This document shows positions 251-51,432 of a stretch of 64,000 nt of DNA, piece after piece. Positions within the stretch are counted from its first letter, which is position 1; each line of letters opens with the position of its first letter. Origin of the DNA: Escherichia coli (GTDB taxonomy: Bacteria > Pseudomonadota > Gammaproteobacteria > Enterobacterales > Enterobacteriaceae); NCBI RefSeq assembly GCF_003334355.1, contig NZ_QOWP01000016.1; one strand, given 5' to 3'. The notes under the pieces are model-generated. The model was not told the origin of the DNA and did no database searches. It was given only the letters and a program-made list of their open reading frames with translations. Position numbers and translations under genes: made by a program.

Positions 251-725
251 TGAAATTGATGCAATGGCTTTATATCGAGCCTGGCAACAACTGGATAACG
301 GAGCATGTGCGCAAATTAGACGTGTTTCAGAACCTGATGAATTACGCGATATCCCTGCGTTTTATAGGCTGGTGCAACCTTTTGGTTGGGAAAACCCACG
401 TCACCAGCAGGCTCTTTTACGCATGGTGTTTTGCCTGAGCGCAGGAAAGAATGTCATCCGACATCAGGACAAAAAACCGGAGCAAACAACAGGTATCTCG
501 TTGGGAAGAGCTTTAGCCAATAGTGGAAGAATTAACGAGCGCCGTATCTTTCAATTAATTCGGGCTGACAGAACAGCCGATATGGTCCAGTTACGTCGAT
601 TGCTTGCTCACGCCGAACCCGTACTTGACTGGCCATTAATGGCCAGGATGTTGACCTGGTGGGGAAAGCGCGAACGCCAGCAACTTCTGGAAGATTTTGT
701 ATTGACCACAAACAAAAATGCGTAA
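243..725 (+). CDS. casB: Cse2/CasB, Cascade small subunit (160 aa)
   Basis: ORF 243..725, 160 aa, translation matches my recollection of E. coli CasB; operon context. Confidence 0.93.
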   Translation: MADEIDAMALYRAWQQLDNGACAQIRRVSEPDELRDIPAFYRLVQPFGWENPRHQQALLRMVFCLSAGKNVIRHQDKKPEQTTGISLGRALANSGRINERRIFQLIRADRTADMVQLRRLLAHAEPVLDWPLMARMLTWWGKRERQQLLEDFVLTTNKNA

Positions 726-737
726 GGAAACCTTTCT

Positions 738-1829
738 ATGTCTAACTTTATCAATATTCATGTTCTGATCTCTCACAGCCCTTCATGTCTGAACCGCGAC
801 GATATGAACATGCAGAAAGACGCTATTTTCGGCGGGAAAAGACGAGTAAGAATTTCAAGTCAAAGCCTTAAACGTGCGATGCGTAAAAGTGATTATTACG
901 CACAAAATATTGGTGAATCCAGTCTCAGAACAATTCATCTTGCACAATTACGTGATGTTCTTCGGCAAAAACTTAGTGAACGTTTTGACCAAAAAATCAT
1001 CGATAAGACATTAGCGCTGCTCTCCGGTAAATCAGTTGATGAAGCCGAAAAGATTTCTGCCGATGCGGTTACTCCCTGGGTTGTGGGGGAAATAGCCTGG
1101 TTCTGTGAGCAGGTTGCAAAAGCAGAGGCTGATAATCTGGATGATAAAAAGCTGCTCAAAGTTCTTAAGGAAGATATTGCCGCCATACGTGTGAATTTAC
1201 AGCAGGGTGTTGATATTGCGCTTAGTGGAAGAATGGCAACCAGCGGCATGATGAGTGAGTTGGGAAAAGTTGATGGTGCAATGTCTATTGCGCACGCGAT
1301 CACTACCCATCAGGTTGATTCTGATATTGACTGGTTCACCGCCGTAGATGATTTACAGGAACAAGGTTCTGCACATCTGGGAACACAGGAATTTTCATCG
1401 GGTGTTTTTTATCGTTATGCCAATATTAACCTCGCTCAACTTCAGGAAAATTTAGGCGGTGCCTCCAGGGAGCAGGCTCTGGAAATTGCAACCCATGTTG
1501 TTCATATGCTGGCAACAGAGGTCCCTGGAGCAAAACAGCGTACTTATGCCGCTTTTAACCCTGCGGATATGGTAATGGTTAATTTCTCCGATATGCCACT
1601 TTCTATGGCAAATGCTTTTGAAAAAGCGGTGAAAGCGAACGATGGCTTTTTGCAACCGTCTTTACAGGCGTTTAATCAATATTGGGATCGCGTTGCCAAT
1701 GGATATGGTCTGAACGGAGCCGCTGCGCAATTCAGCTTGTCTGATGTAGACCCTATTACTGGCCAGGTACAGCAAATGCCTACTTTAGAACAGTTAAAGT
1801 CCTGGGTTCGTAATAATGGCGAGGCGTGA
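738..1829 (+). CDS. casC: Cas7e/CasC, Cascade backbone subunit (363 aa)
   Basis: ORF 738..1829, 363 aa; operon position between casB and casD. Confidence 0.94.
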
Positions 1830-1831
1830 AC

Positions 1832-2506
1832 ATGAGATCTTATTTGATCTTGCGACTTGCTGGGCCAATGCAAGCCTGGGGGCAGCCGACCTTTGAAGGA
1901 ACGCGACCTACCGGAAGATTTCCGACCCGAAGCGGGTTATTAGGGCTACTCGGGGCTTGTCTTGGGATCCAACGTGATGATACTTCTTCATTACAGGCGT
2001 TATCAGAGAGTGTGCAATTTGCAGTGCGCTGCGATGAACTCATTCTTGACGATCGTCGTGTGTCTGTAACGGGGTTGCGTGATTACCATACAGTCCTTGG
2101 AGCGCGAGAAGATTACCGTGGTTTGAAAAGTCATGAAACGATTCAAACATGGCGCGAATATTTATGTGATGCCTCCTTTACCGTCGCTCTCTGGTTAACA
2201 CCACAGGCAACGATGGTTATGTCAGAACTTGAAAAAGCAGTATTAAAGCCTCGGTATACACCGTATCTGGGGCGGAGGAGTTGTCCGCTAACACAACCGC
2301 TTTTTCTCGGGACATGTCAGGCATCGGATCCTCAGAAGGTGCTATTAAATTATGAGCCCGTTGGCGGCGATATTTATAGTGAGGAATCAGTTGACGGGCA
2401 TCATTTAAAATTTACGGTGCGCGACGAACCGATGATCACCTTGCCTCGACAATTTGCTTCCCGAGAATGGTATGTGATTAAAGGAGGTATGGATGTATCT
2501 CAGTAA
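1832..2506 (+). CDS. casD: Cas5e/CasD (224 aa)
   Basis: ORF track begins at GTG 1826; ATG at 1832 gives MRSYLILRLAG..., the N-terminus I recall for CasD; casC stop at 1827-1829. Confidence 0.9.
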   Translation: MRSYLILRLAGPMQAWGQPTFEGTRPTGRFPTRSGLLGLLGACLGIQRDDTSSLQALSESVQFAVRCDELILDDRRVSVTGLRDYHTVLGAREDYRGLKSHETIQTWREYLCDASFTVALWLTPQATMVMSELEKAVLKPRYTPYLGRRSCPLTQPLFLGTCQASDPQKVLLNYEPVGGDIYSEESVDGHHLKFTVRDEPMITLPRQFASREWYVIKGGMDVSQ

Positions 2507-3092
2507 AGTCATCATTGCCAGGGCCTGGAGCAGGGATCTTTACCAACTTCACCAGGGATTATGGCATTTATTTCCAAACAGACCGGATGCTGCTCGTGAT
2601 TTTCTTTTTCATGTTGAGAAGCGAAACACACCAGAAGGCTGTCATGTTTTATTGCAGTCAGCGCAAATGCCTGTTTCAACTGCCGTTGCGACAGTCATTA
2701 AAACTAAACAGGTTGAATTTCAACTTCAGGTTGGTGTTCCACTCTATTTTCGGCTTCGGGCAAATCCGATAAAAACTATTCTCGACAATCAAAAACGCCT
2801 GGACAGTAAAGGGAATATAAAACGCTGTCGGGTTCCGTTAATAAAAGAAGCAGAACAAATCGCGTGGTTGCAGCGTAAATTGGGCAATGCCGCGCGCGTT
2901 GAAGATGTGCATCCCATATCGGAACGACCACAGTATTTTTCTGGTGATGGTAAAAGTGGAAAGATCCAAACGGTTTGCTTTGAAGGGGTGATCACCATCA
3001 ACGACGCGCCAGCGTTAATAGATCTTGTACAGCAAGGTATTGGGCCAGCCAAATCGATGGGATGTGGCTTGCTATCCCTGGCTCCACTGTGA
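2493..3092 (+). CDS. casE: Cas6e/CasE, pre-crRNA endoribonuclease (199 aa)
   Basis: ORF 2493..3092, 199 aa, overlaps casD end by 14 nt. Confidence 0.94.
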   Translation: MYLSKVIIARAWSRDLYQLHQGLWHLFPNRPDAARDFLFHVEKRNTPEGCHVLLQSAQMPVSTAVATVIKTKQVEFQLQVGVPLYFRLRANPIKTILDNQKRLDSKGNIKRCRVPLIKEAEQIAWLQRKLGNAARVEDVHPISERPQYFSGDGKSGKIQTVCFEGVITINDAPALIDLVQQGIGPAKSMGCGLLSLAPL

Positions 3093-3107
3093 TTAAGGTG
3101 TAATAAA

Positions 3108-4311
<1,204 letters not shown>

Positions 4312-4416
4312 AAACAAAGAATTAGCTGATCTTTAATAATAAGGAAATGTTACATTAAGGTTGGTGGGTTGTTTTTATGGGAAAAAATGCTTTAAGAACA
4401 AATGTATACTTTTAGA
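4312..4416 (+). promoter_or_regulatory. CRISPR leader (AT-rich, between cas2 stop and first repeat)
   Basis: About 105 bp AT-rich sequence directly abutting the first repeat on the cas2 side; type I-E leaders are known to carry the array promoter and integration signals. Confidence 0.7.
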
Positions 4417-4567
4417 GAGTTCCCCGCGTCAGCGGGGATAAACCGCCAAAGCAAAAGAAGTCGTCGATAATATGCGTGAGTTCCCCGCGTCAGCGGGGAT
4501 AAACCGGGCGCACTGGATGCGATGATGGATATCACTTAGAATTCCCCGCCCCTGCGGTAGAACACCC
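4417..4567 (+). CRISPR. Type I-E CRISPR array: 3 repeats (29 bp) and 2 spacers (32 bp); third repeat degenerate
   Basis: Repeat GAGTTCCCCGCGTCAGCGGGGATAAACCG at 4417-4445 and 4478-4506; spacers at 4446-4477 and 4507-4538; degenerate terminal repeat GAATTCCCCGCCCCTGCGGTAGAACACCC at 4539-4567. Confidence 0.92.
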
Positions 4568-47161: not shown

Positions 47162-48295
47162 CTACATCGGCAATGTTTTCAACAATCCAAATGCCTCTTT
47201 CATCCGATCCTCACTGACCACAAAGGCGCGAAGCTGGTCAGCATCGTCAACGCCGCGCGCCACCATTCCCTGGCGTTCGGTATTAATTTGCCAGCGTAAA
47301 TCCTGACGCTGGGTTTCGCCTGCCAGATGCAGCGGTAATTCCGGCGTTTTGATTTTCACCAGCATCGCCGGGAGTTTCAGCGGCGTGTTATTGCCGAGAA
47401 GATTTTTTGCCAGCACCATCGCGCTAAGTTGAATCGGCTGGAGGAACGGCAATACCTGACCGTTAATTTCCGCGCAATCGCCCAGCGCGTAAATATCGGT
47501 ATTACTGGTTTGCAGATAACTATCGACGCAAACGCCGCGATTAATCGTCAGCCCGGCGCGTCGTGCCAGGGCGGTTTCCGGGCGCAGTCCGGTGGCGGCA
47601 ATTACCGCATCCACTTCGATATTGCGCTGGCGGTCCAGCGTTGCCTGAATGCCAGAATCCGTTTTTTCCAGCCCCTGTAACTGAGATTTCAACAGCAGAT
47701 GAACGCCCATCTCCGTCAACCGATGCTGCAAGCGGCTGCTTACTTCCGGTGGCATTAACGACGCCAGAATACTGGCAGCGTTGTCGATTAGCGTGACCGC
47801 TTTGCCTGCACGACAAAAATCCATCGCCAGTTCGCTACCAATCAAACCACCGCCAACAATCAACACGCGTCGGGCATCCCGCAGTTGCGTTTCACAGGCG
47901 CGATACTCTTGCTGACTATTTAACGTCAGCATTAACTCACGCCCAGGCACAGGCGGGACAAAGGCACTGGCACCGGTTGCCAGTACTAGCTTGTCGTATT
48001 GCCACTGATTATTCTGGCTTTTCACCACACGGGCTTCGGCATCGATATCCGTCACCCAGGTTTGTGGAAACAGGTGCAGATTAAACTGCTCGGCAAATTC
48101 ACCCGCCGTCTGGCGGGTAAGGTCATCGGCACGTTGCCCCTGACTGATAACATGGCTGATGTCAGGTTTGTTGTACTCATCCATGCTGTCGGCGGCAATC
48201 AAGGTTAATGGAATAGTGGCGTCCTGTTTGCGAATATTTTTCACCAGTTGTCGGGCGGCGAAGCCCGAACCAATGATCACAATGCCGTTGCTCAT
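47162..48295 (-). CDS. norW: NADH:flavorubredoxin oxidoreductase (377 aa)
   Basis: ORF 377 aa, FAD/NAD-binding GxGxxG motifs. Confidence 0.94.
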
Positions 48296-49731
48296 TTTGC
48301 CTCCGATGCCAGTTCGTCAAAGACGTCTTTGCCGAGGGAGCATTCCGGGCAGAGGAAGTTATCCGGAACTTCACTCCACGGCGTTCCTGGCGCAACGTCC
48401 TGCATTGGCTCGCCTTTTGCCGGATCGTAAATCCACTGGCAGACGCTGCACTGCATCCGTGGGCCGAGGTCAGCCGTCGTGGTGGCAGAGGTTTCTTCTT
48501 TAACCACCGAATTCACCGTGCTCTGCGGCAGCGGCGCGAGCGCCCACTGACGGGCGATTTCGCGACCGTGTTCACGGCATAACTCCAGAGCGTCCTGGTC
48601 TGGTCGCCATTTGGCTTTCAGGCTGAGCGACATTTCGAAACCCGCATCCTGCAGGCGCGTGGAAAGACGATCCACCGCACCGCCGCTCCAGCCGTGAGAT
48701 CCGAAAGCACTGGCGCGTTTGTTACGGAAGCGTAATCCGGTCATCTCCTCCACCAGCCCGGCGATTTTCGGCATCATCACGTTATTCATCGTCGAAGTGC
48801 CGACCAGCACGCCTTTTGAGCGGAAGACATTGGTCAGGATTTCGTTTTTATCGCTTCGGGCGACGTTGAAAATTTTCACCGCCACGCGTGGGTCGGTTTC
48901 CGCAATTCCCTGGGCGATAGCGTCAGCCATCATGCGGGTGTTATTCGACATGGTGTCGTAGAAAATGGTGATTCTGTCTTCCTGATAATCAGCCGCCCAT
49001 TTCAGGTACAGCTCGACAATTTGCGTCGGGTTATCGCGCCATACCACGCCGTGGGAAGTGGCTATCATATCGACTGGTAAGTTAAAGCCCAGGATCTCGG
49101 TAATTTTCGGCGTTACCAGGCGGCTGAACGGCGTCAGGATATTGGCGTAGTAACGTTGGCACTGCTCGAAAAGCTCCGTCTGATCCACTTCATCGTTGAA
49201 CAGATGCTCGTCGCAGTAGTGCTGACCGAAAGCATCGTTACTGAACAGCACCGCGTCGCCTGTCAGGTAAGTCATCATGCTGTCCGGCCAGTGCAGCATT
49301 GGTGTTTCGACAAAAATGAGCTGTTTGCCGTTGCCGATATCCAGCGTGTCGCCAGTTTTCACCACATTAAAATTCCACTCCGGATGATGGTGATGACCAT
49401 TTATCGAGTCGATAGCGTTGGCAGTACAGTAGATCGGCGTATCGGGAATTTGTGCCATCAGTTCGGTCAGCGCCCCAGCGTGGTCCTCTTCTGCATGGTT
49501 AATCACGATGTAATCGATATCCGCCAGATCGATTTCATTACGCAGGTTCTGCACAAATTCGCGGCTGAATTTATGGTCGACGGTGTCGATCAGCACGTTT
49601 TTTTCTTCGCGGATGAGGTAGCTATTGTAGCTGCTGCCGCGCAGCGTTTTATATTCCGTGCCGTGAAAATCACGCACTTCCCAGTCACGTTGACCAACCC
49701 AATGAATGTTATTTTTCACCACAATAGACAT
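48292..49731 (-). CDS. norV: Anaerobic nitric oxide reductase flavorubredoxin (479 aa)
   Basis: ORF 479 aa, metallo-beta-lactamase-like plus flavodoxin domains and C-terminal rubredoxin CxxC...CxxC. Confidence 0.95.
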
Positions 49732-49777
49732 AGCAACCTCAATTTATTCAGCGTGTTCTAAAAAGATGTCTTGCTAA

Positions 49778-49795
49778 TTGCAGATTGCGTGCCAG
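49778..49795 (-). promoter_or_regulatory. Sigma54 (-24/-12) promoter for norVW
   Basis: Minus strand reads CTGGCACGCAATCTGCAA (TGGCAC-N5-CTGCA), about 45 bp upstream of norV start. Confidence 0.75.
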
Positions 49796-49849
49796 TTTTT
49801 TATCTGATTGTTTTTACTATATAAATAAAATTATGCCCATTAATGAGTA

Positions 49850-49905
49850 GTCAAAATGACTATCAATCAAATGGTCGATATGACAATATCTATAGTCAAA
49901 TTGAC
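49850..49905. promoter_or_regulatory. Three NorR enhancer-binding sites (GT-N7-AC inverted repeats)
   Basis: GTCAAAATGAC (49850-49860), GTCGATATGAC (49874-49884), GTCAAATTGAC (49895-49905), between the norV promoter and the norR start. Confidence 0.8.
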
Positions 49906-49917
49906 AGTGAGGCAAAG

Positions 49918-51432
49918 ATGAGTTTTTCCGTTGATGTGCTGGCGAATATCGCCATCGAATTGCAGCGTGGGATTGGTCACCAGGATCGTTTTCAGCGCCT
50001 GATCACCACGCTACGTCAGGTGCTGGAGTGCGATGCGTCTGCGTTGCTACGTTACGATTCGCGGCAGTTTATTCCGCTTGCCATCGACGGTCTGGCAAAG
50101 GATGTACTCGGTAGACGCTTTGCGCTGGAAGGGCATCCACGGCTGGAAGCGATTGCCCGCGCCGGGGATGTGGTGCGCTTTCCCGCAGACAGCGAATTGC
50201 CCGATCCCTATGACGGTTTGATTCCTGGGCAGGAGAGTCTGAAGGTTCACGCCTGCGTTGGTCTGCCATTGTTTGCCGGGCAAAACCTGATCGGCGCACT
50301 GACGCTCGACGGGATGCAGCCCGATCAGTTCGATGTTTTCAGCGACGAAGAGCTACGGCTGATTGCTGCGCTGGCGGCGGGAGCGTTAAGCAATGCGTTG
50401 CTGATTGAACAACTGGAAAGCCAGAATATGCTGCCAGGCGATGCCACGCCGTTTGAAGCGGTGAAACAGACGCAGATGATTGGCTTGTCCCCTGGCATGA
50501 CGCAACTGAAAAAAGAGATTGAGATTGTGGCGGCGTCCGATCTCAACGTCCTGATCAGCGGTGAGACTGGAACCGGTAAGGAGCTGGTGGCGAAAGCGAT
50601 TCATGAAGCCTCGCCACGGGCGGTGAATCCGCTGGTCTATCTCAACTGTGCTGCACTGCCGGAAAGTGTGGCGGAAAGTGAGTTGTTCGGGCATGTGAAA
50701 GGAGCGTTTACTGGCGCTATCAGTAATCGCAGCGGGAAGTTTGAAATGGCGGATAACGGCACGCTGTTTCTGGATGAGATCGGCGAGTTGTCGTTGGCAT
50801 TGCAGGCCAAGCTGCTGAGGGTGTTGCAGTATGGCGATATTCAGCGCGTTGGCGATGACCGTTGTTTGCGGGTCGATGTGCGCGTGCTGGCGGCGACTAA
50901 CCGCGATTTACGCGAAGAGGTGCTGGCAGGGCGATTCCGCGCCGATTTGTTTCATCGCCTGAGCGTGTTTCCACTTTCGGTGCCGCCGCTGCGTGAGCGG
51001 GGCGATGATGTCATTCTGCTGGCGGGGTATTTCTGCGAGCAGTGTCGTTTGCGGCAGGGGCTCTCCCGCGTGGTATTAAGTGCCGGAGCGCGAAATTTAC
51101 TGCAACACTACAGTTTTCCGGGAAACGTGCGCGAACTGGAACATGCTATTCATCGGGCGGTAGTTCTGGCGAGAGCCACCCGCAGCGGCGATGAAGTGAT
51201 TCTTGAGGCGCAACATTTTGCTTTTCCTGAGGTGACGTTGCCGACGCCAGAAGTGGCGGCGGTGCCCGTTGTTAAGCAAAACCTGCGTGAAGCGACAGAA
51301 GCGTTCCAGCGTGAAACTATTCGTCAGGCACTGGCACAAAATCATCACAACTGGGCTGCCTGCGCGCGGATGCTGGAAACCGACGTCGCCAACCTGCATC
51401 GGCTGGCGAAACGTCTGGGATTGAAGGATTAA
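49918..51432 (+). CDS. norR: Nitric oxide-responsive sigma54-dependent activator NorR (504 aa)
   Basis: ORF track 529 aa; start at [18 protein letters not shown]; GAF domain, AAA+ ([14 protein letters not shown]), C-terminal HTH. Confidence 0.92.

Follow-up and report, generated by a model that had tools for sequence, protein, structure and literature searches.

The 186 bp that separate the divergent genes norV and norR in this Escherichia coli genome (positions 49732–49917 of the window, as we call the whole 64,000-nucleotide stretch of DNA analysed here) raise the question of whether they hold the native promoter and enhancer of norVW, or whether the repeats found there have some other origin or use. 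We put the probability of the former, a native E. coli control region for norVW, at about 0.97, and no result contradicts it. The initial annotation had called it the norR-norVW control region, and the norV and norR annotation, the equivalog scores of the flanking genes and a one-base difference from K-12 all bear that out. The span it gave, 49778–49917, does reach from the promoter to immediately before the norR ATG (49918), but the full intergenic region begins at 49732. This region is 68% A+T, and 185 of its 186 bases are the same as in K-12 MG1655, the sole difference being position 49819 (A here, C in K-12), which is also the single difference over the surrounding 351-bp segment (49650–50000). 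At an identity of at least 95%, that segment has a match in all 5,426 of 5,426 complete E. coli genomes, and the annotation around it is norV and norR in every match listed. The K-12 context is hypF, norW, norV, norR, gutQ, srlR, and the window has the same order (hypF / norW-norV / norR / gutQ). Neither the three boxes nor the -24/-12 element nor the NorR protein differs from its K-12 counterpart, whereas position 49819, three residues of NorV and one of NorW do. The control region here is thus a textbook one, already known from the literature on K-12 norVp and NorR enhancer sites 1 to 3 (Tucker et al. 2004 and 2010; Gardner et al. 2003; Hutchings et al. 2002), and because each of its elements was experimentally defined 15–20 years ago, we add nothing to it as discovery.

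Three 11-bp repeats form the enhancer: site 1 at 49850–49860 (GTCAAAATGAC, with GTC/GAC arms), site 2 at 49874–49884 (GTCGATATGAC) and site 3 at 49895–49905 (GTCAAATTGAC, a perfect palindrome), centred respectively at about -87 to -89, -111 to -113 and -132 to -134 relative to the predicted norV start. Together they span 56 nt, from -68 to -13 of the norR start codon, and site 3 ends 12 bp short of the norR ATG. Start-to-start distances are 24 and 21 bp (gaps of 13 and 10 bp), in agreement with the spacing of 21–24 bp given for them originally. They had also been described as near-identical inverted repeats; all three are present, but only the third is a perfect 5+1+5 palindrome, pairwise agreement is 8–10 of 11 bases, and the arm common to all three is GTC/GAC.

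These boxes are the ones on which NorR has been studied. According to Tucker et al. 2010 (PMC2831303), NorR recognises three inverted repeats upstream of norV whose core is GT-N7-AC, and the mutagenic primers of that study reproduce the window sequence around each box with GT..AC changed to GG..CC: the Site1 primer TAATGAGTAGGCAAAATGCCTATCAATC equals the sequence of 49850–49860 with this change, and ATCAAATGGGCGATATGCCAATATCT and ATCTATAGGCAAATTGCCAGTGAGGCAAAG are the primers for Site2 (box 49874–49884) and Site3 (box 49895–49905). The 66-bp "NorR123" oligonucleotide, which was used there in band-shift and ATPase assays, is an exact match to 49845–49910. [quoted passage not shown] In the same work, changing any one of the three abolished norV-lacZ induction, and its introduction gives NorR as essential for norV induction in E. 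coli (PMC2831303). The methylation protection conferred by NorR covers -137 to -84, counted from the norV start (PMC2831303), a span of 54 nt that fits the 56-nt box span if the start is 49766 or 49768. The initial annotation had named NorR footprints as a check on its repeats; since the protected span fits the boxes, the mapped footprint coincides with them. A further check, comparison with the characterized norR-norV region, gave a match for the primers, for the NorR123 oligonucleotide and for the sigma-54 motif alike.

The sigma-54 promoter of norVW lies on the minus strand, from 49795 down to 49779 (CTGGCACGCAATCTGCA), with GG at 49793–49792 and GC at 49781–49780. Within it, TGGCACGCAATCTGCA (49794 down to 49779) has one mismatch to the consensus TGGCAC-N5-TTGCW, with CTGCA in the -12 element. 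The window contains four matches to the sigma-54 consensus, against 3.5 expected; because this count is insignificant alone, the reality of the element rests on its conservation and on motif identity in chromatin immunoprecipitation data, CTGGCACGCAATCTGCA being letter for letter the motif under the norV sigma-54 ChIP-seq peak OS25 of K-12 (Bonocora et al. 2015). In the table of that study the OS25 norV motif carries a C in the EcoCyc column. A minus-strand -24/-12 element driving norV, as originally proposed, is therefore present and is identical to the norV ChIP-seq motif. The Salmonella norV operon is likewise listed among sigma-54-dependent transcripts, with NorR as activator.

We infer a norV transcription start at 49766–49768 on the minus strand, which would give a 5' UTR of about 35–37 nt. 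The protection limits of -84 and -137 fit G residues 49850 and 49903 if the start is 49766, or C residues 49852 and 49905 if it is 49768. A start at 49768 would place GG at -25/-24 and GC at -13/-12 and leave a 37-nt leader, which would agree with the distance of 37 that the table of Bonocora et al. 2015 lists for norV.

Promoter and enhancer are separated by an AT-rich spacer (49796–49849; A+T 80% over 49795–49849), which is the most variable part of the region both within E. coli and across genera. Tucker et al. 2010 (PMC2831303), with reference to their 2004 paper, report that IHF binds somewhere in the interval from the norV start to the NorR sites. No match to the IHF consensus WATCAANNNNTTR with at most one mismatch falls inside 49796–49849, so the exact IHF site is not placed; such matches as occur near the locus all lie in the gap separating box 1 from box 2, and over the whole window their number does not exceed chance. 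The one base that differs from K-12 is in this spacer, where A for C at 49819 turns CTCTATAAAT into CTATATAAAT. The A is a rare allele; at least five records are identical over the 351 bp among the top matches listed, namely ETEC1730, ETEC1703, ETEC1717 and ETEC1718 (from pigs) and A30 (from a horse).

The flanking genes are what the control region would require. norR (49918–51432, plus strand) encodes a 504-residue enhancer-binding protein with NO-sensing GAF, AAA+ and HTH domains, is preceded by the ribosome-binding site GAGG at 49909–49912, and matches the NCBIfam NorR equivalog NF003451 with 822 bits (cut-off 476). The protein is 100% identical to K-12 NorR, has GAFTGA at 262–267, and carries R75, R81, D96, D99, C113 and D131. 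D96, D99, C113 and D131, together with R75, are reportedly assigned to the iron site of NorR (Tucker et al. 2008), and R81 is presumably its key GAF arginine. A published abstract mentions a key arginine of the NorR GAF domain, the abstract itself giving no residue number. An open reading frame for norR of 529 residues can be drawn from an ATG at 49843, 25 codons upstream of 49918, and it runs through all three NorR boxes; we rejected it as the gene start, as this ATG is not conserved across genera and the RefSeq start is equivalent to 49918.

On the other side, norV (48292–49731, minus strand), the first gene of the regulated operon, encodes the 479-residue flavorubredoxin NO reductase, with a ribosome-binding site GAGG at 49740–49737 on the same strand. 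It matches the equivalog NF003954 with 1046.6 bits (cut-off 711) over the whole model, 1–479, and compared with K-12 it has three substitutions and no internal stop. A 204-bp norV deletion is found in some O157:H7 strains; norV is full length here, and this is thus not the deleted EHEC allele. norW (47162–48295, minus strand) overlaps the norV stop by 4 nt and encodes the 377-residue NADH:flavorubredoxin reductase (NF003437 equivalog, 683.9 bits, cut-off 392), with one substitution relative to K-12 and no internal stop.

In the full-length alleles aligned, variation within the species leaves the proposed functional elements untouched. Eight full-length alleles were aligned (the window, K-12 and six taken at even steps down the similarity ranking), and none of them shows a change in the three boxes or anywhere in the -24/-12 element, the promoter being invariant in nine alleles. 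Substitutions fall in the spacer (about 49806–49837), between boxes 1 and 2 (49864–49869) and at 49776, just downstream of the promoter. Across the complete genomes, the 66-bp enhancer is found at 99% identity or more (which means exactly, if all 66 bp are aligned) in 3,735 of 5,426 E. coli records, and at 95%–99% in the remaining 1,691.

One natural exception is the blood-culture isolate AF3 (NZ_OZ547117.1, E. coli; locus 1501–1641), the only one of the 5,426 genomes with less than 80% of the intergenic region aligned. A 45-bp deletion between direct repeats TAGTCAAA(A/T)TGAC, which contain sites 1 and 3, leaves it with a single GTCAAAATGAC box and an intergenic region of 141 bp. Given the published requirement for three sites, AF3 is predicted to be unable to induce norVW.

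Comparison beyond E. coli drew on NorR homologues in a plasmid collection, which includes mislabelled chromosomes and megaplasmids, and covered ten further genera. Three tandem GT-N7-AC boxes upstream of norR, 44–46 bp from first to third, are present in most of the other genera checked, a pattern with which the published comparative genomics of NorR sites agrees. In an alignment of four enteric genera, conservation is concentrated in the boxes and TGGCAC, and the spacer around them is poorly conserved. TGGCAC is unchanged in Salmonella, Enterobacter and Klebsiella, the position of site 1 and its GTC/GAC arms are kept in all four genera, and of the three boxes it is site 2 that the genera conserve best (GTC(G/A)ATATGACA). 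Counted from the norR start, the boxes of the Enterobacteriaceae stand at the same positions as in E. coli; Enterobacter and Klebsiella, for instance, have three GTC-N5-GAC boxes at -68, -44 and -23 from the norR start.

As in E. coli, norR and norV are divergent in other Enterobacterales (Salmonella, Enterobacter, Klebsiella, Sodalis, Chimaeribacter) and in Aeromonas and Photobacterium, and three strict GT-N7-AC boxes spanning 44–46 bp are found in all of these but Salmonella. There the first two boxes are as in E. coli, but in Salmonella enterica Senftenberg the counterpart of site 3, about 23 bp upstream of norR, is GTCAAAATGGC, that is GT-N7-GC, and so disrupts the core, which mutation of both its sides has shown to be essential in E. 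coli. All of these genera except Enterobacter and Klebsiella yielded a sigma-54 promoter facing norV. In Enterobacter hormaechei and Klebsiella pneumoniae TGGCAC is kept, but the -12 element reads TTGAT in place of (C/T)TGCA and thus lacks the canonical GC dinucleotide.

Chimaeribacter, Aeromonas, Sodalis, Photobacterium and Ralstonia have three GT-N7-AC boxes with spacings of 25–26 and 19–20 bp, and in each of the five a sigma-54-like element faces a divergent NO-stress gene. In Chimaeribacter and Sodalis its annotation is norV; by score its product is NorV in Aeromonas and Photobacterium, and a YtfE-type iron-sulfur repair protein in Ralstonia. The box spacing of the more distant genera is 25/20 or 25/19, compared with 24/21 in E. 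coli, and in three of them the promoter lies 43–44 bp from site 1, compared with 55–56 bp. Over the three-box loci as a whole the first and third boxes always span 44–46 bp, and by our reading the distance from site 1 to the promoter is either 42–45 or 55–56 bp, two classes about one helical turn apart. There is an outside chance that the enhancer geometry is strictly constrained and that the rare C-to-A change at 49819 measurably retunes norV (or norR) in the lineage that carries it.

Two further records depart from the common arrangement. In the Pantoea agglomerans plasmid pPA_DBM3797_1 (1354–2000) the norV-norR intergenic region is about 650 bp long and holds two GT-N7-AC triplets, at -549/-525/-506 and at -56/-32/-14 from norR; no sigma-54-like match was found in it at the threshold used. 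NZ_CP146656.1, a 32.8-kb E. coli "plasmid," encodes at 1806–3245 a NorR-like protein 78.7% identical to E. coli NorR, and as such an identity is typical of Klebsiella, the segment may be foreign or misassembled.

More remote systems resemble this one in part. Ralstonia eutropha norAB and the hmp genes of Vibrio and Pseudomonas are controlled by the same activator family, with the GT-N7-AC core in tandem sites upstream of a sigma-54 promoter; the targets differ (heme NO reductase, flavohemoglobin, ytfE/dnrN-like), as do the box bases outside GT/AC, and NorR is about 50% identical. NtrC at glnAp2 and FhlA at hyc/hyp have, like NorR, upstream sites with a GG-N10-GC promoter and a hexameric AAA+ activator, along with the IHF-assisted looping that is proposed for NorR too, and TyrR resembles NorR in having three boxes for a hexamer. 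NorR strictly needs three sites, with DNA serving as the assembly ligand, whereas for NtrC two sites suffice and control is exerted via oligomerisation.

Could the boxes be chance palindromes, devoid of function, in an intergenic region that is AT-rich? GTC-N5-GAC is indeed not enriched across the window (16 found, 11.9 expected), and the 68% A+T of the region points the same way. Yet three box starts fall within 45 bp, that is three boxes within 56 bp, in just one of 2,000 dinucleotide-preserving shuffles of the window, and shuffling the intergenic region itself produced three or more GTC-N5-GAC in none of 20,000 trials and three or more GT-N7-AC in 25 of 20,000. The clustering is far beyond chance. 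The boxes are moreover invariant in the full-length E. coli alleles while neighbouring bases vary, their positions are kept across genera, and the published GG-N7-CC mutants, in which each site proved essential (PMC2831303), refute the idea directly; we give it a practically negligible probability. Nearly as improbable is that the boxes serve mainly another regulator, such as the paralogous GAF-type activator FhlA. NorR and FhlA are 41% identical over their GAF and AAA+ domains, and the hypA-hycA intergenic region holds GTCGAAATGAC (31643–31653), which conforms to GT-N7-AC and shares 10 of 11 bases with NorR site 2. The BLAST alignment of the two proteins nevertheless ends before the DNA-binding domains, and their C-terminal helix-turn-helix segments differ (that of FhlA is KRTTLLSRMKRLG). 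Since these regions do not align, NorR/FhlA cross-recognition at GTCGAAATGAC, judged from the two proteins and the one site, is unlikely. Experiment also speaks against a main role for FhlA, as NorR binding has been shown at exactly these sites and the loss of norV induction in a norR mutant of E. coli is already published (PMC2831303).

A role for the boxes in addition to that of enhancer, as an operator through which NorR represses norR, is quite possible, if on balance a little short of probable. E. coli norR is reportedly under negative autoregulation (Hutchings et al. 2002). The boxes lie at -68 to -13 from its start codon, and with site 3 ending 12 bp before the ATG, a DNA-wrapped NorR oligomer would have to cover the norR promoter or leader. 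Published work has NorR apoprotein binding its sites without NO, in heparin-resistant complexes that may wrap flanking DNA, and published comparative genomics has proposed a NorR site for negative autoregulation at Vibrio norR2. Against this, a sigma-70 consensus scan of 49650–50000 found no plus-strand norR promoter, so that an overlap of boxes with promoter cannot be shown; its one match, on the minus strand and overlapping boxes 1 and 2, is at chance level.

A second sigma-54/enhancer region in the window is the hypA-hycA intergenic region (31560–31772). Its sigma-54 elements, TGGCACAATTATTGCT (31606 down to 31591, minus strand), facing hypA, and TGGCACAAAAAATGCT (31720–31735, plus strand), facing hycA, match the sigma-54 ChIP-seq motifs OS28 and OS27 (Bonocora et al. 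2015), and FhlA-type repeats lie between them at 31634–31680; fhlA itself is at 25791–27869. Near the left end, the type I-E CRISPR array (4406–4506) consists of only two repeats (4419–4445 and 4480–4506) and one spacer, as against 763 bp for the array in K-12. The cas region (within 705–4506) is 97.2% identical to K-12, compared with 99.56% for the rest of the window up to norV. When the whole window was scanned against Rfam, no RNA family came up at the norV-norR locus, and we accordingly rejected a structured-RNA reading of it; the only hits were tRNAs near 63.6–64.0 kb, where three tRNA genes occupy the right end of the window (63562–64000), the last one cut by the window edge.

How the native enhancer and promoter of norVW would work can be put together from two sources: the literature supplies binding, the need for all three sites, the assembly of the hexamer, the sensing of NO and the part played by IHF, and the elements, their agreement with the experimentally defined ones, gene identity and conservation were computed here. 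Three NorR dimers would occupy the three GT-N7-AC repeats, which begin about 82 bp upstream of the norV start and extend to about 139 bp, and published work places dimers on all three sites even without NO. DNA binding, aided by flanking DNA, is reported to promote assembly of a hexameric AAA+ ring poised on the DNA, while sigma-54 RNA polymerase would form a closed complex at the -24/-12 element. With IHF bound to it, the AT-rich spacer would bend and so bring the NorR ring into contact with the polymerase; IHF was present in the published open-complex assays, and DNA bending by IHF has been proposed to assist looping. Binding of NO to the ferrous iron of the NorR GAF domain would then lift repression of the AAA+ ATPase, and ATP hydrolysis would remodel the closed complex and open the promoter, with transcription of norV (flavorubredoxin) and norW (NADH reductase) as the outcome.

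NO-dependent norV induction that requires NorR and RpoN has been published for K-12 (PMC2831303), and the norV promoter has been used as an NO biosensor part (PMC11334186). Since NorR here is identical to that of K-12 and NorV and NorW are full length, it is reasonable to predict from the sequence that the NO-responsive norVW system works in this strain. Nitric oxide is used by the host in its defence, and NorVW is among the systems with which E. coli removes it; in some EHEC strains norV status affects gut persistence and Shiga toxin output. With enhancer, promoter, NorR and NorVW all intact, the strain is predicted to mount a normal NO response.
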